A stretch of DNA of 64,000 nt from an uncultured Candidatus Woesearchaeota archaeon. Lineage in GTDB: Archaea; Nanobdellota; Nanobdellia; Woesearchaeales; B29-G15. The stretch spans positions 21,459 through 85,458 of the forward strand of contig CAIWSB010000080.1 in assembly GCA_903915225.1 (NCBI GenBank), in the 5' to 3' direction. The notes under the pieces were generated by a model that did not search any database, was not told the DNA's origin, and worked only from the letters and a program-made list of their open reading frames with translations. Positions within the stretch are counted from its first letter, which is position 1. The number at the start of each line of letters is the position of its first letter. The translations under genes and the position numbers were made by a program. This document shows, in pieces, positions 1 to 55,938 of this stretch.

Positions 1-1194
1 GTGCATAAAGGCAAGTTCTACGCGCTGCCACAATCCCCTCAGCTATACAAGCAGCTACTAATGATTTCCGGGCTTGACAGGTATTTCCAGATTGTGAAAT
101 GCATGAGGGATGAGGATCTAAGGGCAGACAGGCAGCCCGAATTCACTCAGTTCGACATGGAAATGTCCTTTGTGAATGAGGAGGATATTTTTGCAGTTAT
201 TGAAGGGATGATGAAGCTAATTTGGGAGGATATTCTGCACCAGGAAATCAAGACACCGTTCCTCAGAATGAAGCATCACGATGCAATGGAAAGGTTTGGG
301 ACAGACAAGCCAGATATGCGGTTTGGCATTGAGCTTCAGGATATTACCACGTTTGCAAAGGAATGTGGTTTTAGGATACTTGAGGAGATTGCTAGTGCAG
401 GGGGCACGGTCAAGGCAGTTGTTGCACATGTTGAGCCAAACAAGAAACTCTCGGAAAACCTTTTGGCAGCTGTTAAGGCTAACAAGGGTAAAGGCGTAGT
501 GGAGCTTTATTTTACGGGTGCAGGATTGGAAGGTGCAAGTGCAAAGCACTTCAGCGAAAAGTCCGTTGAAGGGTTGAAGAAACAGCTGAAGCTGGAAAAA
601 GGCGATCTTGTAGTGATTGTTGCAGACAAGGACAGGCATGCTGCAAACAAGGCACTGGGCGCAGCACGCCTGGAATTGGGTAACGTTTGTTCCCCAGATA
701 AGAAAGGGTATGAATTCCTTTGGGTTACTGAATTCCCGCTCATGGAATTCAGTGAAGAGGACCAGCGCTGGGTATCTGCGCATCACCCATTCACATCAAC
801 GGTTGACGAAGATCTTGATCTGCTTGAGAAAGATTTAAGCAAAATTAAGAGCAGAAGCTATGATGTTGTGCTCAATGGCACCGAGCTAGGGAGCGGCAGC
901 ATCAGGATTAACCGGCCGGATATACAAGCCCGAGTTTTCAAAGCTCTTAAGATTACTGATGAGGAAGCCAAGAGCAGATTCGGTTTTTTCCTCGAAGCCC
1001 TGAAGTATGGTACACCACCTCATGGTGGGATTGCCTTCGGAATGGATAGACTTGTTGCGCTCATCAGCGGTACACCGAGCATCAGAGATGTTATGGCTTT
1101 CCCAAAGAACAAATTTGCTGAAGAGCTAATGGTTGGGTCACCATCGGATGTTTCAAAGAAGCAGCTGGATGAGCTGGGATTGGGTCTAAAATGA
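1..1194 (+). CDS. aspS: Aspartyl-tRNA synthetase, bacterial type (with GAD insertion domain). C-terminal 397 aa only; the 5' end is cut by the window edge.
   Basis: Class IIb motifs [26 protein letters not shown] (motif 2) and [19 protein letters not shown] (motif 3), plus a bacterial-AspRS-style insertion domain between them. Frame is open from base 1. Confidence 0.85.
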
Positions 1195-2498
1195 AAAGGG
1201 TAATGATTGGCGATGCAATTAAGGAAGGTAAGGGCAAGGTTCAACTCTGGGGCTGGGTACACAGGCAAAGAAACTCCAATGAGATGGCATTCATTGTGCT
1301 CAGGGATGCAAGCGGGATAATCCAGTGTGTTATCAAGAAAGCGGAAGTGGATAATGAGAGTTGGATAGCTGCCACAAAAGCCAATGTTGAATCCTCAATG
1401 GAGATATTGGGTGAGTTGAAGAAGGACGAGCGTGCCCCAACTGGTTTTGAAATTGTGGCTGAGAAAGTGAGGTTTATTTACAAGGGGGATGCATTCCCCA
1501 TAGCCAAGGACTTATCACCTGAATTCCTGCTTGATGTGAGGCACCTTTGGCTCCGCTCACAATACCTTTCTTCTATAATGAAGATACGATCAACAGTTAC
1601 CGGGGCAATACACGAGTTTTTCAGATTGCATGGATACTTTGAGTTTACACCACCTATCTTTACACCGGCAGCTTGCGAAGGGGGCTCGACGCTTTTTGAG
1701 GTCAAGTATTTTGAGAACAAGGTTTACCTGAGCCAGTCATGGCAGCTTTATGCAGAGGCCGCAATATTTGCATTGGAAAAAATCTACGACGTCTCGCCAA
1801 CATTCAGGTCAGAGAAATCCAGCACATCGAGGCATCTGGCTGAATTCTGGATGGCTGAGATGGAGGCTGCATTTATGGATTATAAGGAATGCTCTGAAGT
1901 GGCCAAGGACGAAGTCCAGTTCATTGTAAAGTCTGTGCTAAAGAAAAACCAGGAGGAGCTTAAGATATTGAAGCGCGATGTATCAAAACTCGAGCCTGCA
2001 GCCACAAAGAAATTCCCAACCCTTACATACACCCAGGTATTAAAAATGCTGAAGGAAAAACGCGGGCTTGATGTAAAATGGGGCAAAGACTTGCGCACAA
2101 TTGAGGAGAGGGAATTGATGTCCATGTTCGACACGCCAGTTATTGTTACCCATTATCCAAAGGAGATTATGGCATTCTACAAGCCGGTGGATGCAGAGGA
2201 TAAGGAGGCCCCGCGCCCGGTTGCTAAATGCTTTGACATGCTTGCACCGGAAACTTATGGTGAAATTGTTGGTGGCTCTGAGAGGGACACTGACATTGAG
2301 GCCTTAAAACAAGCACTTGAGGCTGGCGGAGAGAAGGTTGAGAACTACGATTGGTATTTTGATCTAAGGCGATTTGGCTCTGTCAAACACTCAGGCTACG
2401 GCCTCGGTGTTGAGCGAGTTATTGCATGGATATGCGGGCTTGAGAACATTCGCGATGCAATACCATTCCCCAGGACAATGGACCGGTGGAAGCCTTAG
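1191..2498 (+). CDS. asnS: Asparaginyl-tRNA synthetase
   Basis: [24 protein letters not shown] and the C-terminal [30 protein letters not shown] match AsnRS closely ([18 protein letters not shown]). N-terminal OB-fold anticodon-binding region present. ATGA overlap with aspS. Confidence 0.8.
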
Positions 2499-2500: not shown

Positions 2501-3268
2501 TTACCTTTTCCAAGTCTTTGCTATTCCTATAACCCCTGCAATCACAAGCGGTATTGAGAGCCATTGACCCATGGAAATTCCAGCAATAACTATTTCTGGG
2601 CTCCTAAAGAATTCAATTATAATCCTAAATACACCATAGAAAAGCATGAAGCTGAAAAACAAAAAGCCGTCCTTTCGACTCTTGCTTTTTGAGAGTACCA
2701 GCAGGGAACCAAAAATGATTAGGTTTTTTACAATCTCGTATATTTGTGAAGGGTGCCTCGCAACGGTTCCGGCATCCGGCGCTTGCGGAAAGTAAACCCC
2801 CCAGGGAAGATTTGTTGGCTTCCCCCATAGCTCGCCGTTTATGAAATTTCCAAGCCGACCAAATGCAAGTGCAACCGGGATTGGCATTATGAACAGGTCA
2901 GCCATTTTTAGGAACTTGAGTTTCTGTTTTCTGCAATATAACCAAGCCAAGAGAATCCCAAGCAGGAATCCTCCGTGGAAAGACATTCCCCCTTCCCAAA
3001 TTTTGATGATTGCAACAGGGTTTTTCAGAAAGAAGATGGGGTCATAGAAGATGCAATAAAACAGCCTGCCCCCTACGATAAGTCCCAACACTAAATAGAA
3101 TATTATATCATTAATCTGCTCTTCAGTTACCTTTATCTTATGGGCTTTGGCATACCACCTGGCAAAAAAGTAGCAGAAGATTATGCCTATTACATACATT
3201 ACCCCATACCATCTCACATCCAGCTGCCCAACGTGAAAAAGCACGGGATTGATTGCATGGTGAAACAT
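2501..3268 (-). CDS. lgt: Prolipoprotein diacylglyceryl transferase (Lgt), bacterial type
   Basis: Polytopic membrane protein with the Lgt signature GRLGNFINGELWG...RHPSQIYE and a YGVMYVIGII N-terminal helix. ATG start confirmed. Confidence 0.8.
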   Translation of the reverse strand: MFHHAINPVLFHVGQLDVRWYGVMYVIGIIFCYFFARWYAKAHKIKVTEEQINDIIFYLVLGLIVGGRLFYCIFYDPIFFLKNPVAIIKIWEGGMSFHGGFLLGILLAWLYCRKQKLKFLKMADLFIMPIPVALAFGRLGNFINGELWGKPTNLPWGVYFPQAPDAGTVARHPSQIYEIVKNLIIFGSLLVLSKSKSRKDGFLFFSFMLFYGVFRIIIEFFRSPEIVIAGISMGQWLSIPLVIAGVIGIAKTWKR

Positions 3269-3329
3269 TATTTGGGATAAATGGAAACAATATTTAAATT
3301 AAGCGGATTGACGCAACAAAAAATTTATA

Positions 3330-4670
3330 ATGGGTGGAGGTATCGTTGACTCAATGTATGAGATAATACTTGGGCGGGATGAAGAGGACAGGAAGCGTTT
3401 TGGAATAAAAGGCACAATTCTCGTTGGCAAGCATTATGTAAAAATGGGTGAAACGACATCGCTCTCAAATGATGTCCTTATGGATGTTGTGAGGAGCCAT
3501 GTGGTGTTTGTGTGTGGAAAGAGGGGTTCGGGTAAGAGCTATACCATGGGTGTAATCGCCGAGGGTATGGCAAACCTCCCAAAGGCTATAGGCAGGAATA
3601 CATCTGTGCTTATTTTTGATACAATGGGGGTTTACTGGACCCTAAAATACAAAAACAAGAAAGAGGATAAGGACCTTAGGGAATGGAAGCTTGAGCCCCA
3701 AGGGTTTGATGTTCGGATTTTCACACCCCATGGATTCTTCCAGGATTTTAAAGACAAGGGTATTCCAACTGATTTCCCATTTTCAATAAGCCCAATAGAG
3801 CTTGAGCCCGCAGATTGGTGCATGACATTTGGAGTGTCTATTAATGACCCGGTGGGTGTGGCAATTGAAAGGGTAATCGCCCCGCTTAAGAAGACCAAGA
3901 AGGAATTTTCTCTGGATGATGTAATAAAAGAGATTAACAAGGATCCCAAGCTGGATCCAAAGGTAAAAAATGCAGCTGAGAGCAGGTTTGAGGCGGCCAA
4001 AGAATGGGGGCTTTTCAAGAAGGATGCAACCCCAATCAAGGATTTGGTTTCAAGGGAGAAAATAACTGTTCTGGACATAAGCTGCTATGCCTCGGCCACA
4101 GGCGGCGAAAATCTACGCGCGCTGGTCATTGGCATGGTCTCCCAGAAACTCTTCGCTGAGCGAATGCTTACCAGGAAAGAGGAGGAATACAAGGAGATTG
4201 AGGAGGCCACCTCTATATTTGGAAAATCTGATGAGCTCTACCAGCTGGAGTTTCCACTGGTGTGGCTTATTGTTGATGAGGCTCATGAGTTTATCCCAAA
4301 TGATGATGTGACTCCAGCAACAAAACCTCTAATTACAATCTTGAGAGAGGGTAGGCAACCAGGTATTAGTCTCATCTTGGCATCACAGCAACCGGGTAAA
4401 ATTTCAACTGATGTGATGACCCAATCAGATATTGTGATATCCCATAGAATAACTTCTGAGGTTGACATAAAGGCTCTCGGGCTGCTAATGCAGAGTTATC
4501 TGCGCCAAGACCTGAACAAATTCTTGGACACACTGCCGAGGGATTCCGGGGCTGCGCTGGTTTTTGACGATACAAATGAGAGGATGTACTCGGTAAGAAT
4601 TAGGCCGAGGCTCAGCTGGCACGGGGGTTCTTCACCAACAGCCATGCAGGGCGAGGACATTGAGTTCTAG
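3330..4670 (+). CDS. HerA/FtsK-superfamily P-loop ATPase (DUF87-like)
   Basis: Walker A GKRGSGKSYTMGV, Walker B/DEAH box LIVDEAHEFIP, and arginine-finger region ILREGRQPGISLILASQQP, as typical of HerA/DUF87 ATPases. No NurA partner nearby. Confidence 0.55.
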   Translation: MGGGIVDSMYEIILGRDEEDRKRFGIKGTILVGKHYVKMGETTSLSNDVLMDVVRSHVVFVCGKRGSGKSYTMGVIAEGMANLPKAIGRNTSVLIFDTMGVYWTLKYKNKKEDKDLREWKLEPQGFDVRIFTPHGFFQDFKDKGIPTDFPFSISPIELEPADWCMTFGVSINDPVGVAIERVIAPLKKTKKEFSLDDVIKEINKDPKLDPKVKNAAESRFEAAKEWGLFKKDATPIKDLVSREKITVLDISCYASATGGENLRALVIGMVSQKLFAERMLTRKEEEYKEIEEATSIFGKSDELYQLEFPLVWLIVDEAHEFIPNDDVTPATKPLITILREGRQPGISLILASQQPGKISTDVMTQSDIVISHRITSEVDIKALGLLMQSYLRQDLNKFLDTLPRDSGAALVFDDTNERMYSVRIRPRLSWHGGSSPTAMQGEDIEF

Positions 4671-4749: not shown

Positions 4750-5919
4750 ATGGAAAAACTGGCGAAAAAGTTTGTTACGCCTCAAGATTACCAAAGGCTT
4801 ATTTCTGAGCGACTCTATTCCCATCGTGGCTGGCTTCTCATGGTTCCATGCACCTCTGGACTTGAAATGTGCAGGAACATTGTGGCTGCATATGAGAGGA
4901 ACTTAAAGGAGAATGGAATTGATGACAAGCGAGTGCCAGTGGCTTACGGTGAATTTAAAGATGGCTCACCCGGAAGGGTTTTCTTAGACGGGGAGCTGCA
5001 AACAAGGCTGCCATGCCATGTTGCTGGCTCTGATGCTTATGTTGTCCAGTGCCTCCACAACAAACAGCTCAGCAAGAGCGTTAATGACAATCTTATGGAA
5101 CTGAAGTTAACCGGGCGAGCACTCAAGGTTCATGGAGCGAACCATATAACGGCCGTGCTGCCTTATCTGGCTTATTCGCGAGGGGATAAACCCACTTATA
5201 TGCAAAGAGAGCCGGTTACATCAAAGCTTGTTGCAGACGAACTGCTTAATGCAGGTTTTGATGCTGTTATTTCATATCATCCGCACACAGAGGCCGTGAG
5301 AGGATTCTTTGAGCCGGGAATACGTTTTATTCCAATAAACGGGCTTGACTTGGCAGTCTCAATTGCTTGGCAGTACAAGAACAGGAAGGATGCGATAGTT
5401 ATAGCCCCGGACGTTGGTTCGGGATCAACTGCAAGACATTTTGCCGATGGACTCGGGCTTGATTTTGCAATCTCAGATAAAACAAGAAAGGCAAATGGCG
5501 ATATTGACAGCCTTGGAATTCTGGGCCACCTTGAGGGTAAGAAGATTGGGATAGGCACCGAAGATGAAACTGTCACGTGCGATACTCTGTATCGGGCTTC
5601 AATGTGGTACCATCAGGCGGGGCTTGAGGAGATAATCTGGATTGTGTCCCACTTGAAAGTTGATGAGCGCATGGTGAAGGAGAATGGCAAGGTTTTAAAT
5701 GTGCTAAAAATGATGGAGGATATGCACACTAAATTCAATGTGACTACCATCCATACAACAGACAGCATACCTCAAACCGAGGCGTTCCAGAAGCTGGATT
5801 TCCTCAAGATACATATCATTGCAGAACGCCTAATGATTGCCATCAACCACCTCTTTTACGAAGTCTCTATCAGCGGCCCGTTCTGGCCGAACACCGAACA
5901 GCCCTTTTTCAAGGACTAG
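4750..5919 (+). CDS. prs: Ribose-phosphate pyrophosphokinase-like protein (PRPP synthetase fold) with a ~90 aa C-terminal extension
   Basis: ITAVLPYLAYSRGDKP and VISYHPHTEAVRGFF match the Prs motifs (PYLAYARQDK, NPHETHIKDFF). The PRPP loop is divergent (IGTEDETVTCDT instead of VDDIISTGGT). Confidence 0.55.
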   Translation: MEKLAKKFVTPQDYQRLISERLYSHRGWLLMVPCTSGLEMCRNIVAAYERNLKENGIDDKRVPVAYGEFKDGSPGRVFLDGELQTRLPCHVAGSDAYVVQCLHNKQLSKSVNDNLMELKLTGRALKVHGANHITAVLPYLAYSRGDKPTYMQREPVTSKLVADELLNAGFDAVISYHPHTEAVRGFFEPGIRFIPINGLDLAVSIAWQYKNRKDAIVIAPDVGSGSTARHFADGLGLDFAISDKTRKANGDIDSLGILGHLEGKKIGIGTEDETVTCDTLYRASMWYHQAGLEEIIWIVSHLKVDERMVKENGKVLNVLKMMEDMHTKFNVTTIHTTDSIPQTEAFQKLDFLKIHIIAERLMIAINHLFYEVSISGPFWPNTEQPFFKD

Positions 5920-5931: not shown

Positions 5932-6360
5932 TTATTTTACTCGAGAATCGAGAGTTGTTAAGGGTTCTTGTTCGCAGAATTTGACGTAATCTCGTATTGC
6001 AGTCATTAGAGAATTAAACCCAGTTATATCTATTTTATTATATGCTGGGTCTACCTTGTGTTTAGCCCTTAAAGACACCCGGGTGTTACCTTCCTCACTA
6101 ACTGAGCTATAAACATGGAAATGGAGGCCCGAATAAAATAGACCCTTATAATTAGCCCATCCCTCTTTCTTTTCTAGGGGTGAAGAAGAGCTGATTTTGT
6201 CAATTGGTATCCCTTGGCTTAATAGATACTGCTGAAGAGAGTTGAGGTCGTGTGCACCAAGAATAACCAAATCTAAGTTTACATATGCCTTGTAGTTGTA
6301 GTGCATCTGCTTAAAATGAGCAACATACTTCTTGTCAGGCAATAGTTTTTCTAGCTCCAT
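5932..6360 (-). CDS. Hypothetical protein, tandem paralog A (142 aa)
   Basis: ORF with ATG start. It is paralogous to the adjacent upstream ORF, sharing the N-terminus M-x-LE-x-LPD-KYV and the C-terminus RDYVKxCEQEPLTTLDSRxK. Confidence 0.5.
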   Translation of the reverse strand: MELEKLLPDKKYVAHFKQMHYNYKAYVNLDLVILGAHDLNSLQQYLLSQGIPIDKISSSSPLEKKEGWANYKGLFYSGLHFHVYSSVSEEGNTRVSLRAKHKVDPAYNKIDITGFNSLMTAIRDYVKFCEQEPLTTLDSRVK

Positions 6361-6361: not shown

Positions 6362-6772
6362 TTATTTCGCCCGTGAATCTAAGGTTGTTAATGGCTCTTG
6401 CTCGCAGAGTTTTACATAATCACGCAGGGCTTGCATAAGCTCAGATGCACCAGTACCGGACACTTTATAATCTGAGAATATTGCAGAATTTTTTGCTGTT
6501 AAAGATACAGTTGTTTGCCCGTTTTTTTTATGTGAAACTTGCAAGGAATACTTCACACCCCCCGAGAAATATCCGTTAAAACTTACAGCTTCTTCAGAGG
6601 TTTTCATTCCTTTAATAGGCACACCTTTCGCAAGAAGCAATTGCTGAAGCCCTGAAAAAGAATGCTGGCCAGGGATACTTAATTCATAATGGACATTATA
6701 AAGAACATTTCCCTCATGCTGTTTAAACAGGGATACATACTTCAAGTCGGGTAAATATTGTTCTAGCCCCAT
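6362..6772 (-). CDS. Hypothetical protein, tandem paralog B (136 aa)
   Basis: ATG start, GAGGT site upstream, and a 1-nt spacer to paralog A. Conserved termini are shared with paralog A. Confidence 0.5.
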   Translation of the reverse strand: MGLEQYLPDLKYVSLFKQHEGNVLYNVHYELSIPGQHSFSGLQQLLLAKGVPIKGMKTSEEAVSFNGYFSGGVKYSLQVSHKKNGQTTVSLTAKNSAIFSDYKVSGTGASELMQALRDYVKLCEQEPLTTLDSRAK

Positions 6773-7038: not shown

Positions 7039-8151
7039 TCATTTTTTGAAAATGAACTTTCCAATATTCTTTCTACCAGCCTCACGCCCAGCCTGGTGCT
7101 TTTCGAGGAATTTGTTAATGCGGGCCACAAGCTCGTTCTTGCACTCACCACAAAGGAGCTTTCCAGTAAGGCATGCCTGGCGCCTCTTCTCTAGCTCAGC
7201 ATCATCAGTCTCGAAAAGGAAGTAATAATATTTGAATACAGAGCAAAGGTTTGGCTGGCCACCCAACTTTCGCTGTTGGTCTATAGTCTCCCTACCGCCA
7301 GTGAGGGCGTTCCAAATCTTTCGCTTGACCTCATCTGGTTTGTCATTTGTGAAAATGGCTGTGTCGGGCAGCGAGGCTGACATCTTGTTACCCTGCTGGA
7401 GGCTGGGAAAAAAGATGTTGTGCAATGCTGCGGGCTTGTAATAACCCATCCTGGGGAGAACGTCTCTTGTGATCCTAAAATGCGGGTCCTGGTCTATGCC
7501 GTGGGGTATGAGGCAGGGGATGTTTTTTCCTGCTAATACTGAAGGCAAGAACGCGGGCACGGCTTGCATGCTTGTGAAGAATATCTGGCCAACATTTGTC
7601 TCATTTTGAAACCCGAAAACTGCGCGTACAACAGAGAACGTGATGCGCTTGGCAACTGAAAGGGCCAAGGGGTAAAGTGTGTCTGCACATTCTGTATCAA
7701 TTATTATCTTTGTGAGTTTTGGCTTAAAACCCAGGGCGATTAAATCCAGGGCGTTCTCATATGCGAAGTTGTTAGTCTCTTTGAGCGTGAGCTTATCGCT
7801 GAAGAGGAATTTCTCATCATCAGTCATCTGGAAATAGAGCTCAGCTCCAAACTTGTCCTGGAGCCATTTTGTTAGTATCCACGGAATCAAATGCCCTAAG
7901 TGAGTATGCCCTGACGGGCCACGTCCGGTGTAAAGAAAAAACTTGTTACCTTTTTCATATTCATCTAATAGCCAATCAAGATCCCTATGTGAAATGAAGA
8001 TACCTCTGCGAATCATGTAATGGAGCTCGCCAGTATGCTTCTCAAGCCGGGCAAGAATCTTATCTGTGAGTGGCTGAGTTCCAAACTCTTTTATCAGCTT
8101 CTCGTAATCCACATCCCCCGTGACTTCCCAAGGGGTAACCTTGAATGTCAT
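7039..8151 (-). CDS. trpS: Tryptophanyl-tRNA synthetase (archaeal/eukaryotic type)
   Basis: HIGH-class motif YTGRGPSGHTHLGHLIPWILTKWLQD and KMSAS (the KMSKS motif). Overall it resembles the eukaryotic/archaeal TrpRS core. Confidence 0.85.
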   Translation of the reverse strand: MTFKVTPWEVTGDVDYEKLIKEFGTQPLTDKILARLEKHTGELHYMIRRGIFISHRDLDWLLDEYEKGNKFFLYTGRGPSGHTHLGHLIPWILTKWLQDKFGAELYFQMTDDEKFLFSDKLTLKETNNFAYENALDLIALGFKPKLTKIIIDTECADTLYPLALSVAKRITFSVVRAVFGFQNETNVGQIFFTSMQAVPAFLPSVLAGKNIPCLIPHGIDQDPHFRITRDVLPRMGYYKPAALHNIFFPSLQQGNKMSASLPDTAIFTNDKPDEVKRKIWNALTGGRETIDQQRKLGGQPNLCSVFKYYYFLFETDDAELEKRRQACLTGKLLCGECKNELVARINKFLEKHQAGREAGRKNIGKFIFKK

Positions 8152-8170
8152 TGTGTGAAATACTCTGGGG

Positions 8171-8866
8171 CTAGTTTATAGATTTTTTGGTGGATATTAA
8201 ACCTTTCTCGCAGAGGCTCGTAAAACCCCCCGAAGCAAGGACAATGTGGTCCAGCAGGCGGAGATTGAGCATTAACCCGGCTTTTACAACGACCTCTGTA
8301 ATCTGAATATCCTCATCACTCGGCTCGGGTTCCCCCGAGGGGTGATTATGCACGAGGATCACAGAATGGGCGTTGCAGAGGAGAGCCGGCCTAAATATCT
8401 CTTTAGGGTCAACTATGTTCGAGTCCATGTTGCCCACAGAGATTATCTCTCTGCGGATGAACCTGTGCCTGGAGTTGAGGTAAATCCCAACAAGATGCTC
8501 CTTTCCACTCCTACGGATATCTTCACACAAAGCAATAGCATCAATTGCAGAATTAATTTTTTGGGACTTGTTTGTCTCCCCGAGTTTCAAACGCTTGAAG
8601 AGTTCGCCACAGGCAAGAAGCTGACAAGCCCGAGCGTTCCCTATCCCCTTAACGCTCACAAGTTCCTCATATTTTAAGGAGAAAAGAATCTTTTCAAGGT
8701 TTCTTTCCCTAAGGAGTTCAGCTGCTAACTCCAGCACACTCTTGCCATTACATCCAGAACCCAATATTATTGCTAAAAGCTCAGTTGTGCTTAGTGCCCC
8801 CGGGCCCGAATTCAGCAGCCTCTCACGGGGCTTTTCTGAGCGTGGAAGGTCATTTATTCTGAACAT
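8171..8866 (-). CDS. radC: RadC-like JAB/MPN-domain protein (UPF0758)
   Basis: N-terminal HhH region followed by the JAMM motif HNHPSGEPEPSDEDIQIT. Confidence 0.8.
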   Translation of the reverse strand: MFRINDLPRSEKPRERLLNSGPGALSTTELLAIILGSGCNGKSVLELAAELLRERNLEKILFSLKYEELVSVKGIGNARACQLLACGELFKRLKLGETNKSQKINSAIDAIALCEDIRRSGKEHLVGIYLNSRHRFIRREIISVGNMDSNIVDPKEIFRPALLCNAHSVILVHNHPSGEPEPSDEDIQITEVVVKAGLMLNLRLLDHIVLASGGFTSLCEKGLISTKKSIN

Positions 8867-9015
8867 ACTTCCTTGCCGCGAGAATTCTTTAATAATTCTA
8901 GGGAGAGAAATCCGGAGGGTATTCTGGTTGATTAAATTGTAGTTTGACGATTATTTCTCAACTAATATCACCTCTAAAGTGGTTAAAGCTTCTAATTGAA
9001 TTGAAGACTTCGAAA

Positions 9016-9026
9016 TTTATATATAT
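9016..9026 (+). promoter_or_regulatory. TATA-like box TTTATATATAT upstream of the giant surface-protein gene; GGTGA SD at 9071-9076
   Basis: An AT-rich TATA-like element ~55 nt before the ATG at 9082. The SD has 5-nt spacing to the ATG. Confidence 0.35.
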
Positions 9027-9081
9027 GTGCTCATTCTTGAACCATTATTTTAAACAATATATTTGATTTAAGGTGATTAGC

Positions 9082-12000
9082 ATGAGAAAAATATTGGTTA
9101 TGTCTTTAGTGATTTTGCTGCTGTTGCCATCCTTGGTTTTGGCTCTAACCCTTACTTCCCCTCAAGAAGGTACATTGATACCCTCCGATTACGGTTGTAA
9201 TGAACAGCCGAGCTGCAGTGAAGCGCTTTCTCAAAGTGGTGGCATTGCAACCCAATATGATTTCGACTCAGACGGCCGTGTCGACCTCAAGGAGGTTCTG
9301 CAGGCCATTGCTGATAAAAGCTTAGGAAAAATTTCCGGATCGCAAGTGTGTGGCATGATAGGGTTGTGGCAGAGTGATTGCATCACTATTCTATGCAAAG
9401 ACTCAGATAACAGCCCCGACTTTTATACGAATCTTATTACTTATCCAATAACATCCGATAGCGAGCCATCACTTTTCCAGAAGGGCTATGCTAAGGGTAT
9501 ATACACACAAGCAGACCAAAACCTAATAATTGGAGAGGGGAACAAGTTATCATCTATTAGCCAAAGCCCTTACCCCTATTCCATTTACTATGACCATTGT
9601 GCAAACGATCAACAGCTGAATGAGGCCTTCTGCACAACTGAAGGCAAACTAGCTTCCCAGGGAGTTTCATGTCCCAACGGATGCGCAAATGGCGCGTGCT
9701 TAAAAGTGTCAACTCCGAAATGCACAAGTGATTCCGAATGCCCCTCATCGCAGAATACATATTGCTCGGGTGGTTCGGTTTGTTATGAATCCCCAATCGG
9801 GAAATGCATAAACCCCGGAACCGATTCAGCTTACTGCGGCCAAGTCTCTGGGCAAGCGGCCTGTAAAATATGCCCCAATGGCTGCTCTAGTGGGGAATGC
9901 AACCCGGCGCCAACATGCAAAGATACAGATGGACTGAATTATTTGACCAAAACCTCTGTGACTTCAAGCCAGGGTAATGTTTGGTGGGATCAGTGCATTC
10001 AAATCACTGGCGGAACTCCAGAGAGTGCATCCTATTGCGCAGGACAAGACTGCTACCTTTACGAGATGCTTTGCAGCCCCGTTAAAAGTCCCGAAATACT
10101 TGAATTAACTAAAACATTTGATGGAGTGTATAGTGCAAAAATTAGATGTGCAGATGGTTGCAACGATGGCACCTGCAAAAAACCTACTGCAACATGCACG
10201 GATTCTGACGGCGGCATTGACTATTATACCAAAGGAAAAATTGAAGCTTCAGGTTGGGGAATTACCTATGATTCCTGCTTTGGAGAAAATGGCGCTAGTA
10301 TGTTGGATGAGTATTACTGCAATAAAGATGGTTCAGTAGGCAAAGTTGATTTTAGCTGCCCCAATGGCTGCAAGGATGGAGCCTGCATAAAACCAGCTGC
10401 GACATGCAAGGATTCGGATCTTGGGGTGGATCCATATACTAAAGGGATATGTAAAGACTCAAGGGGAGTCATCGTTGAAGACGGTTGCCTTAAATCAGAT
10501 GGTTCTGGTCCTTATCCTAAGGGAGAGTATGTTCTTGAATCCTACTGCATGACCCCTGACATGAGGGAATACTGCAAACAATTCAATGGTGCAGAATACT
10601 GCGATAATCTTCCAGATGTGTGCTATTCCTCTCCATTTATCCCCCAGGATAATCTTGCATGGTATTATTTCCCAAGGAATGAGGCATATTTCTGTGAAAA
10701 TGGCTGCTCAAATGGGGCATGCATAAAGGGAACAAACCCAAAATGCACAAGCGATTCTGAATGCACATCCTCCCAAAAGTCATATTGCTCCGGCAATTTG
10801 GTTTGTGTTCAACCCTCAAGCGGAAAGTGCATAAATCCTGGAACTAATTCAGCTTATTGCGGTACATTATCTGGGCAAGAAGCTTGCCAGCTGTGCCCCA
10901 ATGGTTGCTCAAATGGTGCTTGTATAACCTCAACTTCCAGCTGCTCTGACACAGATGGTGGCATAAATCAGTTTGTCAAAGGAACTGTAAAAACCTTCAG
11001 AGGTCCAGACGAAACGGGGCTGATTGGTATAGCCCAAGGGGTTGGTGCTGTTAAAAAAAGTGTAGAATCTAAGGAAGGTTACACTGCAACTTTTACAGAT
11101 GCCTGCTTCAAGGCGGATGATTACTTCACCCTTAATGTGGGAGAAAAAAGAGATATCAAGATATGGCAGGAAAAATCTAGTGTTGAAATTGTGAACGTAA
11201 ATGTCCCAGAAAATAAAGTTACCCTAAAAATTGGGGGAAATATTTTGACCCTGAATGAGAACGAAGTGAGTGGGATGAACCAAATTATGGTTGGCAAAAT
11301 ATTCACTGCCGAAATCCCTTACCCTACGGCGCAAGTGGAGATTTTTATAGGTCCGCATCAGGGTGCAGGGGATTACCTCATGGAATTCTATTGTTCTGGG
11401 GACAACAACGCCGCTGTAGAATATTTCAAATGCGAGAACGGGTGCTCCGATGGAGCCTGTAACCAGGTAAACACAAAGTGCATTTCTGAAGGACAGACAG
11501 GTTCAGGGTTTTCCCCATACTCCTCTAACGAGAAATGCTGTGCGGGCCTAACTAGTGTTGCCTGTGCAACATCAGACGGCGATATGTGCGGCGTAGCCAC
11601 AGACTGCTTTGTCTGCACCAACTGCGGTGACGGTATATGCGGCCTAGGTGAGAATCAATGCAACTGCGCTCAAGACTGTAATAATTGTGTTGGCGAAGGG
11701 GGCAGTATACCGGTAATTCAAAACGGCCCCAAATGCTGCGCGGGTTTGACACCAATTTCACCCACAGTGTCTAGCGGAACAGGAGAGTGCTTGGTTATGA
11801 TTGGAGCACAGGTTTGCACCAAGTGTGGTGATGGAATCTGTGGCGCAGGTGAGAACCAATGCAACTGCGCTGAGGATTGTGCGTATTCCAAATGCTCAGA
11901 CACCGATGGCGGCCAAGATGTTTTCACAGCAGGCAAGGTGATAATTACAAAGAGCACTGGCTCGATTTACACAGTTCCAGACACATGTGTGTCTGAAGCC

Positions 12001-13500
12001 AACATGCATAATATGGGAATTATGGAGGTAAGCTCATTTGTAAAGAAGGTCAACCCTATCACTGCAGTATCATCTCCTACTGTGACAGTAGCCTCTACTC
12101 CAGTTCAATCAACTTCAGCCGGGGCTTCTGGAGGGCAAGTGCCTTCAGTGGCATCTGTTCAAAACACAGCTATACAAGTGGCTGAAGAGATTGCTGAGCA
12201 GCCCCCATCACAGTATACTACTCCACAACAACCCCCATTAATTACACCCCCCTATGGACATAAGACATATGTTTTGGAGCAATACTGTAATGAAAATGGT
12301 GGCTATAATACCTTGGCTTACGAATGCCCATACGGATGTGAGAATGGTGCTTGTATTACATCACCAGCCACCTGCCTTGCTGAAGGAGAAAATGGCAAAT
12401 CCGGTTTTGAACTCACCACCTGCTGCGAAGGCTTAACCAGCGTCCCAAATTCAAAATTTGAAACAGTTGGTGATGCATCCGGTTACACATGCCTCCAGCC
12501 CCAGGACGGGAGCTTTGTCTGCACCAACTGCGGAGATGGCATATGCGGCTTGGGAGAAAACCAATGTAACTGTGCTCAAGACTGTAATAATTGTGTTGGC
12601 GAAGGAGGAAGCATCCCGGTTATTCCAAACGGCCCAAAATGCTGTGCCGGTTTGACACCAATTTCACCCAGTGTGTCTAGTGGAACAGGAGAGTGTGCGA
12701 TTATGGTGGGGGCGCAGGTTTGCACCCAATGCGGTGACGGTATCTGCGGCGCAGGCGAAAACACCTGCAACTGCGCAGAAGACTGCAAGAAAGTGACCAA
12801 GTGCGAAGTCAATGCAGGGTACTGCCAAGCTGAGTACAAATGCACTGACTTTAAATGCGGCCCTGCACCCACATGCAAAGAGGGATACTATGAGTCTGGT
12901 GAGCTTGGCTGTGTGGAAGGATTATGTTGCCTGCCAGAACCACCTGCAACCAAATGCGAAGCCAACGGTGGTTATTGCAATGTTATGCCAGAATGCAAAG
13001 AGGGATATGAGTGCATACAAATGATGCCAGAATGCAAGGGTGGGTATAATCCCTCTAAAGACTCCTTGGGTTGCCCGGGGGAATGCTGCCTACCTGAAGT
13101 ACCAACCAACACCTGCGAGACCAATGGGGGAAAGTGTACTATTCTTGGGGATCTTGTTGAAGATACGTGTGAAATGCACAACCTGAAAACACTCCCCTAT
13201 TCTTGCCAGCAGATTGCAACGAATACACAATGTTGTGCTGAAGCGATTGTGCCACCCACTACAGTTTGTTCTGGCTGCGTCTACAAAGAGGCATGCCTCC
13301 CAATTGGAACCAGAGTGAGTGTGGATAGTGCGGGTCAATTCTGCGATATAAACAAGCAGATTACTGCCCAACTCCCTGAAGATAATTCCTGCATGAACAA
13401 CTATGAATGCAAATCCAACCTCTGCGTGAGTGACAAGTGTATAAGTGGTGGATTCTTTACAAGGATAATGGAATGGTTTAAGAGCCTCTTTGGGGGATAA
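9082..13500 (+). CDS. Giant (1472 aa) secreted modular cysteine-rich surface protein. The track ORF begins at GTG 9073; the likely true start is ATG 9082.
   Basis: Sec signal peptide MRKILVMSLVILLLLPSLVLA. Eight copies of C-[PE]-N-G-C-x-[DN]-G-[AT]-C and about six copies of C-x-D-[ST]-D-G-[GL] (CKDTDGL, CTDSDGG, CKDSDLG, CSDTDGG twice, plus a weaker CKDSDNS). Two ~90-aa near-identical CTNCGDGICGLGENQCNCAQDC...CGDGICGAGENQCNCAEDC repeats, a Pro/Ser/Thr linker, and EGF/granulin-like Cys knots at the C-terminus. Confidence 0.8.
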   Translation: MRKILVMSLVILLLLPSLVLALTLTSPQEGTLIPSDYGCNEQPSCSEALSQSGGIATQYDFDSDGRVDLKEVLQAIADKSLGKISGSQVCGMIGLWQSDCITILCKDSDNSPDFYTNLITYPITSDSEPSLFQKGYAKGIYTQADQNLIIGEGNKLSSISQSPYPYSIYYDHCANDQQLNEAFCTTEGKLASQGVSCPNGCANGACLKVSTPKCTSDSECPSSQNTYCSGGSVCYESPIGKCINPGTDSAYCGQVSGQAACKICPNGCSSGECNPAPTCKDTDGLNYLTKTSVTSSQGNVWWDQCIQITGGTPESASYCAGQDCYLYEMLCSPVKSPEILELTKTFDGVYSAKIRCADGCNDGTCKKPTATCTDSDGGIDYYTKGKIEASGWGITYDSCFGENGASMLDEYYCNKDGSVGKVDFSCPNGCKDGACIKPAATCKDSDLGVDPYTKGICKDSRGVIVEDGCLKSDGSGPYPKGEYVLESYCMTPDMREYCKQFNGAEYCDNLPDVCYSSPFIPQDNLAWYYFPRNEAYFCENGCSNGACIKGTNPKCTSDSECTSSQKSYCSGNLVCVQPSSGKCINPGTNSAYCGTLSGQEACQLCPNGCSNGACITSTSSCSDTDGGINQFVKGTVKTFRGPDETGLIGIAQGVGAVKKSVESKEGYTATFTDACFKADDYFTLNVGEKRDIKIWQEKSSVEIVNVNVPENKVTLKIGGNILTLNENEVSGMNQIMVGKIFTAEIPYPTAQVEIFIGPHQGAGDYLMEFYCSGDNNAAVEYFKCENGCSDGACNQVNTKCISEGQTGSGFSPYSSNEKCCAGLTSVACATSDGDMCGVATDCFVCTNCGDGICGLGENQCNCAQDCNNCVGEGGSIPVIQNGPKCCAGLTPISPTVSSGTGECLVMIGAQVCTKCGDGICGAGENQCNCAEDCAYSKCSDTDGGQDVFTAGKVIITKSTGSIYTVPDTCVSEANMHNMGIMEVSSFVKKVNPITAVSSPTVTVASTPVQSTSAGASGGQVPSVASVQNTAIQVAEEIAEQPPSQYTTPQQPPLITPPYGHKTYVLEQYCNENGGYNTLAYECPYGCENGACITSPATCLAEGENGKSGFELTTCCEGLTSVPNSKFETVGDASGYTCLQPQDGSFVCTNCGDGICGLGENQCNCAQDCNNCVGEGGSIPVIPNGPKCCAGLTPISPSVSSGTGECAIMVGAQVCTQCGDGICGAGENTCNCAEDCKKVTKCEVNAGYCQAEYKCTDFKCGPAPTCKEGYYESGELGCVEGLCCLPEPPATKCEANGGYCNVMPECKEGYECIQMMPECKGGYNPSKDSLGCPGECCLPEVPTNTCETNGGKCTILGDLVEDTCEMHNLKTLPYSCQQIATNTQCCAEAIVPPTTVCSGCVYKEACLPIGTRVSVDSAGQFCDINKQITAQLPEDNSCMNNYECKSNLCVSDKCISGGFFTRIMEWFKSLFGG
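9715..9905 (+). repeat. Intragenic repeat B copy 1 (PKCTSDSEC...CPNGCSSGEC module); copy 2 at 10735-10925, ~75-80% nucleotide identity
   Basis: Direct comparison of ccgaaatgcacaagtgattccgaatgc... with ccaaaatgcacaagcgattctgaatgc... Confidence 0.6.
10735..10925 (+). repeat. Intragenic repeat B copy 2
   Basis: See copy 1. Confidence 0.6.
11611..11880 (+). repeat. Intragenic repeat A copy 1 (~270 bp; encodes CTNCGDGICGLGENQCNCAQDCNNCVGEGGSIPVIQNGPKCCAGLTPISP...CGDGICGAGENQCNCAEDC)
   Basis: Near-identical (~85-90%) to 12517-12785. At the protein level the copies differ at only a few positions. Confidence 0.7.
12517..12785 (+). repeat. Intragenic repeat A copy 2
   Basis: See copy 1. Confidence 0.7.
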
Positions 13501-13530: not shown

Positions 13531-14193
13531 GTGAAGGGTTTAATAGCTGTTTTTGTATTTTTTATAATTCTAATTTCCTTGGCAGAAGGTAAACTTAACC
13601 AAGGGCCCATGAATTCAAGGCAGATTGAAATACCTTGTACTGAATCAGATGATGGTAAGGACTTTTACCTGCGCGGCAGTGTTTGGGGAGTTGATAATTG
13701 GGGAATAAATGGAATTATAAGTGACATATGCCTTGGCAAGGATGAGTTGGTGCCAATGTTTCCCGGGCAAAGAAGAGTGATAGAGACAAGCAGGGGCACT
13801 GCCATGGAGATTAGGCTTCTGGGATTAGATGAGGGGAAAGGGAAGGTATTAGTGAGTCTTGATGGGAAGGAATTCACAGCTGAGCAATGGGATAAGCTGG
13901 CCTTTGCAGGCGGCTATGTTGGAATAAACCAAATTGCTGAAAATTGGGTTTTTTTGACATTTAACCTAACTGCTGCTGGCAACAAATTATTGGAGTATTA
14001 TTGTGAAGACCAAAAAATTGGTTTTGAAATTTATGAGTGCCCAATGGGATGCTCCGATGGGGCCTGCAGGGTGGATGAAAAACAAGAAAGAACAACAAAA
14101 GAGGTTGTTCTATTTCCTCTTGAACATTTTCTCCAGATCAACCCTAGTGAATTTTATGACAGTTGGGCGGCCATGGGCGCAGGCATAGGCTAG
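13531..14193 (+). CDS. Small secreted protein (220 aa) carrying one copy of the same Cys module as the giant protein; GTG start
   Basis: Signal peptide VKGLIAVFVFFIILISLAEG, then CTESDDGKDFYLRG ... YYCEDQKIGFEIYECPMGCSDGACR, which parallels the module boundaries in the giant protein. Needs a GTG start. The 3' end overlaps the mutL 3' end by 84 nt (convergent). Confidence 0.5.
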   Translation: MKGLIAVFVFFIILISLAEGKLNQGPMNSRQIEIPCTESDDGKDFYLRGSVWGVDNWGINGIISDICLGKDELVPMFPGQRRVIETSRGTAMEIRLLGLDEGKGKVLVSLDGKEFTAEQWDKLAFAGGYVGINQIAENWVFLTFNLTAAGNKLLEYYCEDQKIGFEIYECPMGCSDGACRVDEKQERTTKEVVLFPLEHFLQINPSEFYDSWAAMGAGIG

Positions 14194-18814: not shown

Positions 18815-20596
18815 ATGTGGAAAAGAGGTGCATCGGTTGGTATATTCTTGGTAATTGGAGTAATAATACTCATAACAGCGGGGCTTGTTGTCTGGGTAAT
18901 GAATGGCACATCTCCAAAGCCAACAAATGATGATGTGTCCGGCTATGATGCTAGTGAAGTCCAGAGCTTTGTTAATAGCTGCCTATTTGATTCAACAATT
19001 GCAGGGCTGCGCCTATTGGGACAGCAGGGTGGAGTTATATACCTGAGCCAGGGAGGAGTAACCCCAGATTCTTTCATGCAATCTGAGGCGATACTTTACG
19101 ATGGAAGCTATATACTTAGGGGTATATTGGCCGGGGATATGGACTCTGGGCGCTCCTGTGTCCCAACCCACAAACCACCTATCTATAACCCAGAGAGATG
19201 CCCAAATGTGGCATTCCCCTTCTATAATACAGAATCTCCAGAGGTTTCAATGCAGCAGCTGAGGATATCACCTCCCCCAGCTGATGCCTATGTTCGGCTT
19301 TTAAACAGGGTAAACCTTCGAGACCTCTACCCTCGCACAGAGGAATTTACGAAAATGGGAGCCACATTTGACAATTTGGTTGACAACTCCAGGGACCAGA
19401 GCGTCTATGCGACACTCAAATCCTTCATTGAGCGCAATATCACAAAATGCCTTGACTTCTCAAGCCTTCAAAATGTGGAGGTTACTGCCACGGGGCAGCC
19501 ACAGGTAATCCCTATAATATCTGCTGATTTTGTTACAGTTAGTATGAAATATCCCTTAACAGTAAAACACCAATCAAAAACAATAAGCCTGGAGAAGTTC
19601 TCAGCACCCACACGGGTCAGGTTTAAACCCTTGTTCATTTACGTCAAGTACCTTCTTGAAAATGAAGCCCTGGATTTCAGTTTTGACATCGGTTTGCCCC
19701 AGGACAGCCCAGTGGGTGTAAGCCATATTGTAAATAAGGATGTTGTGGGAAAGGCAGACTTGCTTCAAGTGACTGACAATAACTCTTTCCTGCCAGATAA
19801 AGGGGGAAGTGGTTTTGTGCCTTTCATGTTCTCCACTTTTATTGATAACTCTCAACCGGCCATATCTTATATCCATTATAATAATTTAGATATAGTGCCG
19901 GGGTTGAGGAATAGGCTCACTCATTGTTCGCTCTTAGCAGAACCGCGCAACCCCTGGGAGGAATCAACCACTGATTTGGAAGCTGAAATTGGTACTACCA
20001 TGAATCGGGCAGCACTTACTTGCCTCTGGCAAGCCTATGAGAATTCACTAGGGCCTGGATACAGGAGGGTATATGAGCCAGACGGTGATCTTTTGCCTCC
20101 CCCTGACTTCAAGACTGCACATTGTGAATGGAATAAACCCTGCCAATACAAAGGTGAGAATCTCTTCCTTGATAGGCCAGTAAATTTAACAATTAGGTTT
20201 AATGATAGTCAATATGCGGATACTTTAACAATTCCTCTAAAATTATTTGACCACCCGGTTGAAGATCTGAGGATAGGGAGGGTCCACTATGAAGAGGAGG
20301 TTTTGGCAGGTCTTGACCCTCTTATTGTAGACTTAGAACAGGCACTACAGTTACTACCGCTGGTATACCAAGTAAATGCCACCGATGAGGATATCCGGTG
20401 GGGGACTGAAGTCGATGAGATTGAGTATAGTGTGGATGTACCAACTGTTAAGTCGGAGAAGGAAGAACTATCGGAAATTAAACGCCGCTGGGTTGTCGGG
20501 TTCATGAGAAGCTATTCTGGGCAAGTCGCCAACTTCTCTGTCAGGGACAATTATGGCAAATCCATCAGCAAAACTATTGTTTTAGGGGAAGATTAG
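18815..20596 (+). CDS. Large (593 aa) extracellular protein with a class III (type IV prepilin-like) signal peptide
   Basis: N-terminus MWKRG|[23 protein letters not shown] fits the archaeal prepilin peptidase motif (basic residues, G, small residue, hydrophobic helix). The remainder is soluble with no recognisable domain. Confidence 0.55.
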
Positions 20597-20625: not shown

Positions 20626-22497
20626 ATGGGAACTAAAATGGCAAAAAAAGGTTATCTTTTACTAGCTCTGTTGATAGGGATATTCTTGGTGCAATACGCT
20701 GCAGCCCAGAGTGGATGCTGCCTCAACCCAATGACTGAGGGATGTAAATACTCTGCATTGGAAACATGCTGCCCGCCAGACGCCCCAGATAAGTATGTGG
20801 CAGCAGGGGGAGTGGGACCTGCGAATCAAGGGAATTGCACTAGTAATTGGTTCTATCAGAGCGAGCAGGAGGATGCATGCGCCACGATGTCGGCCGATAC
20901 ATTCCCCAATGCAGGTTATTGCATGCAGGGATGTTGCTGCACAAGCCCGCCAGAGTCACAGGAAGGGAATCCTTTCCCAGTAATATTCCTGCAGGAGAAT
21001 AAACTCCTGTGCCTGGGCTTAGACCAGTTTTGGTTTGATTTACAGACAACACCTGTTTGTGATAACACAACCTGCGGGCCAAAATTGTACCCCCCCTTGC
21101 TTAGAAATGCAACTTGTGATATAACTATACCGGGTTATTGTGACCCTTACACCGCGTCAGACCCAGAAGTTATTTGTAAAAATGTTACAAATGTCAATGC
21201 TCAAAACACTCAACGAGGAGTGTGTTGTTACAGCCCCGAGTGTGCAGCAGAAATTGTTGGAGAGACTGTAACAGAAGATCTCTGCGTGGAAACCTTCACT
21301 TCCCCATTCAATGACCCACAAATGGTTTGTGTGAATGGCAATTGGGTCCAATCTGGGCTACCAGTTGGTGCTGGTGAGGTTTGCGCAAGGCAGACAGGCC
21401 AGACAGCAACAAACGAACCAATACTTTTACAGGTTGGTACGTGCACTGATGGCCTGCTTTGTAAACCTGCATTGATTGATGAGATCTTTCACGTATGCTG
21501 TGCAAACAACGAGTGTAGTTACTTTAATACAACCAGCCTAAACGGAACCTGCTATGCTGACCTTTCCAAAATTGAATTGGGAATTGAGACAAGAGCTAAT
21601 TACACCTGTGACAACGGGACATGGACAACTGCTAGTGATGAAATCAAAAAGCGGCATGGAGAGATTTGCGAGAAGTCCCTTGATTGTAATACTGATCTCT
21701 CATGTTTACCCTACAATGTGGAGTCCACTGAAGAAAGCGCAGGTATAAAGCACTGCTGCCTTAAGGATGGCACCGAGTGTGGTTCTCCAGATGGATGCGC
21801 GGGTAAAGATGATACAAAAAAGGTGGGCAACGATACATATGTCTGCATCGGACCGCTTTGGGTAAAGAAGACGGTGGTTGAAACCCCTTGGGAACCACAA
21901 GATAACGGTGGCAGCTCAGGTGGCGGTGGCTGCAGCTCAGCAGGAACAGGTAGTGGTGCAGGTGGCGTTGGCGGGGATAATGTGACCCTAGACACTGATA
22001 ATGATACAATCCTAGATGATAGCGACAACTGCATAAATATATCAAACACAGACCAGAAAGACACAGATAGTGATGGTAAGGGCGATGTGTGTGATGATGA
22101 TATTGACGGAGATGGGGTATTAAACGAGCAGGATAACTGCCCTGAAATCCCAAATGCGGACCAAGCTGACCTCGATAATGATAAAATTGGAGACGTTTGC
22201 GATTCTGATAAAGATGGAGACACGGTTGCAAACGATGTAGACAACTGCCCCCTAGTGATTAACACAGACCAGAAAGATGATGATAATGACGGAATGGGGG
22301 ATGCGTGCGATACTAACGGCAACCAGGAAACCAATTCTTTACTCTTATGGGGCGCCGTGCTAGGTGTGGTAGGAGCAGGCTTAGCTATCGCACTTGGTTG
22401 GATAGCGGCACCCACTTTAGCCATTGGATCTCTCGTTGTTGGAATTGGAACAGTGGTGGGTGTAGTTGTGGGCTGGCTAGTGAGTCTATTCGTCTAA
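20626..22497 (+). CDS. Secreted Cys-rich surface protein with thrombospondin type-3 Ca-binding repeats and a C-terminal TM anchor
   Basis: Signal peptide [25 protein letters not shown]. Cys-rich N-terminal region. Five or six TSP3-like repeats, D-x-D-x-D-G-x-x-D-x-C-D / DNCPxxxNxDQxDxDxDGxGDxCD ([82 protein letters not shown]). C-terminal hydrophobic stretch [25 protein letters not shown]...[10 protein letters not shown]. Confidence 0.7.
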
Positions 22498-24289: not shown

Positions 24290-24369
24290 TACTCCTTTTT
24301 GAAAGCACTGTTTAATAAATTTTGCGATTGCCCGCAAAATTATTTAAGCCGTGCAGTTTTAGGGGAGGC

Positions 24370-31495: not shown

Positions 31496-31496
31496 T

Positions 31497-46076: not shown

Positions 46077-46077
46077 A

Positions 46078-46347: not shown

Positions 46348-46348
46348 A

Positions 46349-47056: not shown

Positions 47057-47062
47057 ACAAAA

Positions 47063-47443: not shown

Positions 47444-47444
47444 A

Positions 47445-49345: not shown

Positions 49346-49356
49346 GCACCCGCAAC

Positions 49357-49596: not shown

Positions 49597-49597
49597 A

Positions 49598-50301: not shown

Positions 50302-50306
50302 AGAAA

Positions 50307-52126: not shown

Positions 52127-52135
52127 GTGTTTATA

Positions 52136-52528: not shown

Positions 52529-52534
52529 ACTAAA

Positions 52535-53676: not shown

Positions 53677-53677
53677 A

Positions 53678-55937: not shown

Positions 55938-55938
55938 G

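Follow-up and report, generated by a model that had tools for sequence, protein, structure and literature searches.

Introduction

Can an archaeon possess a genuine bacterial enzyme of lipoprotein biogenesis and, if so, what would this enzyme do in an archaeal membrane? The question is raised by a stretch of 64,000 nucleotides from an uncultured Candidatus Woesearchaeota archaeon (contig CAIWSB010000080.1; this whole stretch is called the window below), in which an earlier note, made from the sequence alone, had placed a gene for a prolipoprotein diacylglyceryl transferase (Lgt) at 2501-3268. Lgt is the enzyme that starts bacterial lipoprotein anchoring. According to a 2018 FEMS review, no archaeal genome has homologs of signal peptidase II (SPII), Lgt or Lnt (PMC6098224), and the absence of Lgt from archaea is repeated by Hong et al. 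2025 (PMC12462473) and Legood et al. 2026 (PMC13251419). The surveys behind these three papers used RefSeq or arCOG genomes and largely omitted the metagenome-assembled genomes (MAGs) of DPANN archaea. Our full-text literature search found no paper reporting Lgt in DPANN, while the NCBI pipeline already names these MAG proteins as Lgt. Lgt in Woesearchaeota is thus present in the databases and not in the literature that we searched, and the novelty lies in the domain of the host and in how broad the clade is.

Our analysis supports, with a probability of roughly 0.8, the reading that the window encodes a true and functional member of the Lgt family, and that its gene entered the ancestry of an extensive Woesearchaeota (DPANN) lineage once, from a bacterium of Gracilicutes/Proteobacteria type, and has since been a resident gene passed on vertically. 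The enzyme activity, the lipoprotein substrates in this genome and the lipid donor we infer from sequence. The finding bears on the claim that the lipoprotein pathway is "unique to bacteria", and also on the questions of which lipids DPANN cells carry and on whom they live.

Family assignment and catalytic residues

Every criterion that could be tested, the full catalytic set included, places the window protein in the Lgt family. It matches Pfam PF01790 (LGT) with 275.3 bits (E 5e-82, profile positions 1-238 of 240; cutoff 24.9 bits) and the NCBIfam equivalog TIGR00544 with 223 bits (cutoff 118.9 bits). Its sole sequence relative in the PDB is the E. coli Lgt (5AZB/5AZC, E 2e-49). The AlphaFold2 model, calculated with 120 homologs as input, reached a pLDDT of 94.7 and a pTM of 0.90 and contains seven long helices, which are consistent with seven transmembrane (TM) segments, as the earlier note had proposed. 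When this model was compared with the PDB by Foldseek, 5AZB was again the single significant match (E 8e-19, TM-score 0.82). The exact minus-strand open reading frame (ORF), both of the motifs quoted in the note (GRLGNFINGELWG and RHPSQIYE), the two family profiles and the 5AZB match place this observation far beyond chance.

The catalytic residues were compared pairwise with the E. coli Lgt sequence, which agrees with the 5AZB alignment. Identical in both proteins are Y26, R73, G98, G99, H103, G104, D129, G142, R143, G145, N146, E151, G154, H196, E202, Y235, R239, E243 and R246 (E. coli numbering). Legood et al. 2026 found Y26, H103, R143, N146, G154 and R239 to be absolutely required in E. 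coli and G99, G142, G145, Y235 and R246 to be essential, and they define the Lgt signature as G142-R-L-G-N-F-I-N-G-E-L-W-G154 together with H103-G-G (PMC13251419). The window counterparts are Y21, H98, R138, N141, G149 and R215 for the first group and G94, G137, G140, Y211 and R222 for the second. Most of these residues are invariant in the alignments of 120-122 homologs, and G140 and R222 are kept in at least 90% of them. The catalytic histidine and arginines, on whose presence the note had made its claim depend, all align with those of E. coli. The histidine form at the H103 position is the one typical of Proteobacteria (PMC13251419).

The gene belongs to an archaeal genome

The second half of the claim, that this bacterial-type enzyme is found in a truly archaeal genome, is borne out by the gene content of the same window and contig. 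The window harbors the following genes of archaeal or archaeal/eukaryotic type: a ribosomal-protein cluster with S4e, L32e, L19e and L5e/L18, a SecY gene followed by a gene for an EMC3/TMCO1-type insertase, two PurP genes, a fused PriS-PriL primase gene and an archaeal-type TrpRS. The exact SecY, L3, TrpRS, AsnRS, GuaA and HerA-like proteins share one deposited contig of 106,407 bp with Lgt. The GC content is even along the whole window; the GC content at third codon positions of lgt is 0.477, compared to a window mean of 0.489 +/- 0.052, and by codon-usage distance the gene ranks 15th among 43 genes. Six assemblies, which come from no fewer than three projects, contain the exact Lgt protein, each time between the HerA-like gene and AsnRS, and in two of these loci (L001 and L002) the nucleotide sequence is the same as that of the window over both lgt junctions. 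Because of these archaeal markers, the recurring junctions, the native codon usage and the synteny in divergent relatives described below, a chimeric contig is rejected: the host is an archaeon, and lgt is neither a chimera nor a recent import.

The note had further suggested that the contig carries several imported bacterial envelope and lipid functions. Of the genes that it cited, the bacterial-type AspRS (GAD domain; NF001750 513 bits, cutoff 443) is real, as are MutS and MutL. The support from lipid functions was not confirmed, since the ORF at 63139-64000, described as a GT28-like glycosyltransferase, matches MGDG_synth with only 20 bits (cutoff 25) and DUF6938 weakly, and has no sequence match in the PDB. 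This ORF starts with MATKKKKVWLVSVDMGYGHQRAA, and the full gene encodes 438 amino acids in another assembly.

A comparable mixture is seen in the related locus L083. There a bacterial-type DusB gene (L083:12550-13500; TIGR00737 317 bits, above cutoff) is on one contig with genes for an archaeal-type Lhr and a SbcD_rel_arch phosphoesterase (NCBIfam), which is another case of the bacterial/archaeal mosaic in these genomes. A BLAST comparison of the neighbors in L083, L090, L091 and L024 with archaeal and bacterial loci gave no signal on domain affiliation. The fused PriS-PriL primase of the window (24322-25863) is a single ORF of 513 amino acids with weak matches to PriS/Prim-Pol and PriL.

Origin and inheritance of lgt

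The database search revealed a step in identity: among the matches listed, ten sequences are 54-85% identical to the window Lgt and the rest 40-48%. One of the closer relatives (P0005, 60% identity) carries the NCBI name prolipoprotein diacylglyceryl transferase [Candidatus Woesearchaeota archaeon]. Relatives at 58-60% identity (the L086 and L087 loci) have the same gene neighborhood as the window, the shared order being archaeal PheRS alpha/beta, Lgt, AsnRS, AspRS (GAD), MBL-fold hydrolase, a hypothetical protein, HerA-like, PRPP synthase, TrpRS and RadC. Even at 48% identity, on a 184-kb contig (L089) where lgt adjoins fibrillarin and translin, the linkage to AsnRS and AspRS (GAD) is retained. 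In this analysis, the window was assigned to Woesearchaeota through such named relatives and their common synteny. Bacterial control loci were taken from a GTDB genome scan with the Lgt protein, which was dominated by the universal NFINGELW pattern and returned at least 79 bacterial loci and one Nanoarchaeota MAG; in none of the 79 bacterial lgt loci (1.3 Mb) was AspRS or AsnRS found near lgt. Since the lgt-AsnRS-AspRS linkage is kept in divergent archaea and is absent from these bacterial loci, it arose in the archaeal lineage and was inherited together with the gene.

The phylogeny, which the note had named as a check, points in the same direction. A neighbor-joining tree of the best 120 matches, the Nanoarchaeota MAG sequence and E. 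coli Lgt placed the window protein in a 39-member clade supported by 199 of 200 bootstraps, with 192 of 200 for the core subclade of the window and 189 of 200 for its sister group. The named bacteria (Desulfuromonadales, Burkholderiales, Nitrospirae, Syntrophobacteraceae) all lie outside the clade. A hidden Markov model (HMM) built from the 39 members retrieved at least 104 further sequences, so that the clade comprises 142 or more clusters (90% identity). Scores on this HMM are 426-440 bits for the new sequences, at least 344 bits for clade members and 262-339 bits for 82 non-clade sequences. Among the profile matches listed, all ten with organism names are archaeal (seven Candidatus Woesearchaeota archaeon, three Nanoarchaeota archaeon) and none is bacterial, and two clade members are encoded on contigs of 306 kb and 175 kb that belong to Woesearchaeota MAGs at NCBI. 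The mean identity inside the clade is 55%. Four replacements relative to E. coli are fixed in it, all within the TM4-TM5 part of the body: L134P, L210I and, for E206-G207, the pair K-N (100% of the 82 nearest bacterial-type sequences have E and G here).

Thus lgt is an old acquisition inherited vertically over a large Woesearchaeota clade and not an import specific to this contig, and the statement that archaea lack Lgt is wrong for Woesearchaeota. The simplest history suggested by the sequences would be one ancient transfer from a bacterium with an Lgt of the His-103 type (Gracilicutes/Proteobacteria-like), followed by vertical descent.

Resemblance to bacterial Lgt and to AliA/AliB

The window Lgt shares with E. 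coli Lgt (PDB 5AZB/5AZC) the same Pfam and TIGRFAM family, about 36-39% identity, the 7-TM body with arms, an identical signature, the H103-G-G motif and all of the required residues. In contrast to E. coli Lgt, it is 36 amino acids shorter, missing about 18 residues of the periplasmic head and 5 residues of the TM6-7 loop, it carries the clade-fixed replacements described above, and its host is an archaeon without an outer membrane and without Lpp. The Lgt proteins of Desulfuromonadota, Burkholderiales and other Gracilicutes are closer to it (43-48% identity, 255-265 amino acids, a small head and a histidine at the H103 position). They nevertheless fall outside the archaeal clade in the tree and below its members on the clade HMM, have E-G where the clade has K-N, and lack the AsnRS/AspRS linkage.

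A different comparison has to be made with AliA and AliB (arCOG02177/arCOG02178), the lipoprotein lipidation enzymes of the archaeon Haloferax volcanii. They have the same role as is proposed here for Lgt, namely to join a membrane lipid to the cysteine of the lipobox in archaeal lipoproteins. Two AliA arginines are thought to be analogous to R143 and R239 of Lgt, and HHpred gives a probability of 29% for AliA against PF01790 (PMC12462473). As the similarity of AliA to PF01790 is only marginal whereas the window protein is a strong member of this family, the latter is Lgt proper and not an Ali protein. In models of archaeal lipoprotein biogenesis, Lgt and AliA/AliB appear as alternative or co-existing systems. 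We also observed a gene of the inositol-monophosphatase family (426 amino acids) directly downstream of lgt in the closest named Woesearchaeota relative (L087:4221-5501 and L088:4290-5570); in other archaea this family often adjoins aliA, as Hong et al. 2025 reported (PMC12462473).

Candidate lipoproteins and partner genes

Lipoproteins are predicted to be prevalent in DPANN (Hong et al. 2025, PMC12462473). In the loci of four Lgt-bearing archaea (L083, L090, L092, L093) we found lipobox precursors encoded by six real genes, compared to 0-1 matches in reversed or shuffled controls. They comprise a thioredoxin-like protein of L083 (MNKLFVFFFLLCVIVIAGC, ending ...VIAGC), the product of the gene directly downstream of lgt in L090 (...ALAIIAVGC), three DUF411 proteins (...MLAVSAC, L090:3187-3675; ...AVVLAGC, L092:14900-15370; ...LFVISAC, L093:14657-15121) and a weaker sixth candidate, a 258-amino-acid protein of L093 ending in ...LLAAAAC. 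Since related loci encode such textbook precursors, lipoprotein lipidation is the likely role of the Lgt of this clade.

The DUF411 genes lie about 5 kb or less from lgt in these three Woesearchaeota loci and cluster with small unannotated proteins beside a YHS/E1-E2 copper ATPase. The cluster has the appearance of a metal-handling island that is rich in lipoproteins and linked to lgt.

Several neighboring genes were considered as further components of the pathway. In L083 (14918-16878; also in L084 and L085) a DsbA-like gene, the lipobox thioredoxin-like gene and a Lit-family gene are consecutive, with lgt (L083:7329-8081) about 7 kb away; this locus belongs to the clade member P0011 from the 0.1 um fraction of Hainich groundwater. 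The Lit-family protein matches PF07314 with 101.7 bits and the NCBIfam Lit equivalog with 55 bits against a cutoff of 400, and it is nearly an orphan, having only two distant relatives in the database. On these grounds Lit was rejected as a clade-wide partner. A split Lnt, considered for the CN_hydrolase genes near lgt in L091 and L092, was likewise rejected: these proteins have neither a TM segment nor a signal peptide and are cytosolic and not Lnt-like. In the window itself neither Lnt nor Lit was found.

Two of the related loci encode a protein of about 265-275 amino acids with six predicted TM segments (L091:8161-8955 and L093:8586-9410, 62% identity), which has no Pfam match even at E=10. 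In L091 only 2 nt separate its gene from lgt on the same strand, and in L093 the gene is situated 600 bp upstream; neither the window nor the 79 bacterial lgt loci contain it. This protein could be a pathway partner, e.g., a peptidase analog.

Proposed mechanism and lipid donor

On the basis of homology with E. coli Lgt, we propose that a precursor would first be exported via Sec, and that the 7-TM enzyme would bind an anionic glycerophospholipid with a phosphoglycerol head group via R138 and R215 (R143 and R239 in E. coli). The glyceryl-diradyl moiety of this lipid would then be transferred to the thiol of the lipobox cysteine, and the precursors would thereby be tethered to the outer face of the cytoplasmic membrane. 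Two kinds of donor may be envisaged: ester-linked phosphatidylglycerol (PG), either made by the cell itself with bacterial-type fatty-acid and glycerol-3-phosphate (G3P) genes or scavenged from a bacterial host, and the archaeal archaetidylglycerol.

Lgt normally uses ester-linked PG, and archaeal lipids are ethers based on glycerol-1-phosphate (G1P), with a glycerol stereochemistry opposite to the bacterial one. Lit-type transacylation, in turn, needs an ester-linked acyl chain, and the Lit-family gene beside the lipobox thioredoxin in L083 gives only a hint of such lipids. Castelle et al. 2021 reported Woesearchaeota with bacterial fatty-acid synthesis genes, a bacterial G3P dehydrogenase and possible bacterial hosts (PMC8204110), and Coleman et al. 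2019 reported GpsA in Woesearchaeota and, for DPANN as a whole, PlsC/PlsY (PMC6431249). Neither of these papers mentions Lgt, and the supplements of Castelle et al. contain no entry for Lgt or lipoproteins.

A bolder proposition is that an order-level DPANN lineage runs bacterial lipoprotein-anchoring chemistry with a canonical Lgt, which would breach the "lipid divide" in either case; we advance it tentatively, at odds slightly short of even. If it is true, one outcome would be that Woesearchaeota membranes contain bacterial-type ester PG, self-made or obtained from bacterial hosts, and that their surface proteins carry diacylglyceryl anchors. The other outcome would be that a canonical Lgt, perhaps via E206K/G207N, accepts ether lipids built on G1P, which would make Lgt and AliA interchangeable. 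With this finding, the question of the lipid donor becomes experimentally approachable.

Weighing the alternatives

Several points weigh against a functional, vertically inherited Lgt. None of the four recognizable secreted or membrane-anchored proteins of the window has a lipobox: three carry type-I-like signal peptides (9073-13500, 13531-14193, 20626-22497) and one an N-terminal anchor (18815-20596). Lsp (Peptidase_A8, PF01252) was found neither in the window, nor in the gene lists just past its ends, nor in about 140 kb of related loci, whole genomes being outside this search; lsp is not usually linked to lgt. The clade-fixed E206K/G207N could signal a changed specificity. Given the ether linkage and the opposite glycerol stereochemistry of archaeal lipids, a donor for a bacterial-type enzyme may be missing unless the cells carry bacterial-type lipids. 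Furthermore, the phylogeny is a neighbor-joining one only, built from the best-scoring matches and not from a balanced taxon sample, and all of the data come from metagenome assemblies. The lipobox pattern did match elsewhere in the window, in spurious antisense ORFs only, and these candidates were discarded.

The alternative that survives best concerns the donor and is a variant of the preferred reading: the enzyme may have adapted to transfer the diphytanyl (archaeol) glyceryl moiety from archaetidylglycerol, duplicating or replacing AliA/AliB. One would argue that the hosts are archaea, that R143 and R239, the proposed binders of the phosphoglycerol head group common to PG and archaetidylglycerol, are kept, that a charge reversal (E206K) together with G207N, L134P and L210I runs through the clade in TM4-TM5, and that the persistence of the gene over so deep a divergence implies a usable substrate. 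However, nothing in the sequence separates ether from ester donors, the bacterial fatty-acid and G3P dehydrogenase genes reported for Woesearchaeota, some of which may be episymbionts of bacteria (PMC8204110, PMC6431249), favor an ester donor, and the Lit-family gene of L083 makes sense only with ester-linked acyl chains, although it is a family-level match only. We regard this adaptation as possible, but would sooner bet against it.

It is improbable that the protein is an Lgt-fold homolog with a different or lost role, which has another acceptor or has decayed and does not lipidate lipoboxes. The absence of a lipobox protein and of Lsp from the window agrees with such a role, as do the fixed E206K/G207N and the remark of Legood et al. 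that divergent Lgt subgroups may have other substrates (PMC13251419). Yet those divergent bacterial subgroups are without R143/R239, whereas the archaeal clade retains both, and in three archaeal genomes genes for canonical lipobox precursors are found no more than about 5 kb from lgt. The ORF is intact, and the essential residues are invariant over at least 142 archaeal clusters at about 40-60% pairwise identity, which points to strong purifying selection on the catalytic set.

Finally, an assembly artifact that fused a bacterial lgt fragment to an archaeal contig, or the mis-binning of bacterial contigs as Woesearchaeota, would fit the metagenomic origin of the data, the Proteobacteria and Desulfuromonadota as nearest non-clade relatives (43-48% identity) and the bacterial look of the adjoining AspRS and AsnRS, but this explanation is effectively refuted, with a negligible probability left to it, by the identical junctions in six assemblies, by the archaeal-only genes and native composition of the contig, by the synteny in divergent relatives, whose contigs hold fibrillarin, archaeal PheRS and Peptidase_A24, and by a best bacterial identity below 50%, i.e., the lack of a close bacterial donor.

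Organization of the lgt locus

The functional Lgt proposed here is encoded between a convergent AsnRS gene and a divergent HerA-like gene (Table 1). A TTTAAATA box, read from the sequence, precedes the lgt ATG by about 24-31 nt and is a putative archaeal TATA-type promoter, with which the leader would be short or absent. Scans for tRNA genes and Rfam families gave no match in the window or in the related loci.

Table 1. Position of lgt, its motifs and the neighboring genes in the window (aa, amino acids)
Feature	Position	Strand	Description
lgt coding sequence	2501..3268	minus	ATG-to-stop ORF, 255 aa; prolipoprotein diacylglyceryl transferase, predicted 7-TM
Signature motif GRLGNFINGELWG	2822..2860 (aa 137-149)	minus	Equivalents of E. 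coli G142, R143, G145, N146, E151, G154
FHGG	2969..2980 (aa 97-100)	minus	Matches the E. coli H103-GGL motif
RHPSQIYE, start of TM5	2735..2758 (aa 171-178)	minus	E. coli H196, Q199, E202
K181-N182	2723..2728	minus	Clade-defining replacement of E206-G207
YGVFRIIIEFFR in TM6	2603..2638	minus	E. coli Y235, R239, E243, R246
Divergent intergenic region, lgt / HerA-like gene	3269..3329		61 bp, AT-rich
AsnRS	1191..2498	plus	Convergent with lgt, 2-bp gap; NF003037 475 bits
Bacterial-type AspRS with GAD domain	1..1194	plus	5' end cut by window edge
HerA-like DUF87 ATPase	3330..4670	plus	Divergent neighbor of lgt
PRPP synthase	4750-5919		Within conserved archaeal syntenic block with HerA-like gene
Archaeal-type TrpRS	7039-8151		Within conserved archaeal syntenic block with HerA-like gene

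Further features of the window

Of the secreted proteins mentioned above, the one at 9073-13500 has 1475 amino acids, 138 of which are cysteines (9.4%), and no Pfam domain; the small secreted protein at 13531-14193 follows it. The protein at 20626-22497 (623 amino acids) is a cysteine-rich thrombospondin-type-3-repeat (TSP_3) protein without a lipobox, and in L083 a gene for a protein of this TSP_3 kind directly adjoins lgt (8075-9832). The cysteine-rich and TSP_3 secreted proteins are probably surface or S-layer-like proteins.

Two tandem paralogs without Pfam match (5932-6360 and 6362-6772) are identical in 63 of 136 residues, have the C-terminal DYVK.CEQEPLTTLDSR.K in common and are found at the same position in another assembly of this genome.

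The window also contains a near-complete purine operon (30008-39552), which is unusual for a DPANN genome and includes a SAICAR synthase-AIR carboxylase fusion (PurC-PurE, 33493-34809, 438 amino acids) and a PurS-PurL fusion (35627-38593, 988 amino acids). A further fusion, of dihydroorotate dehydrogenase to a DmmA-like/PyrK-like C-terminal domain (562 amino acids), is encoded at 26575-28263. Over the ribosomal-protein cluster (about 46000-56000) the AT skew is strongly positive (0.20-0.29), and several ribosomal proteins, e.g., L22 (225 amino acids, 19% Lys), L32e (196 amino acids, 19% Lys) and S3, carry long Lys/Glu-rich C-terminal tails.

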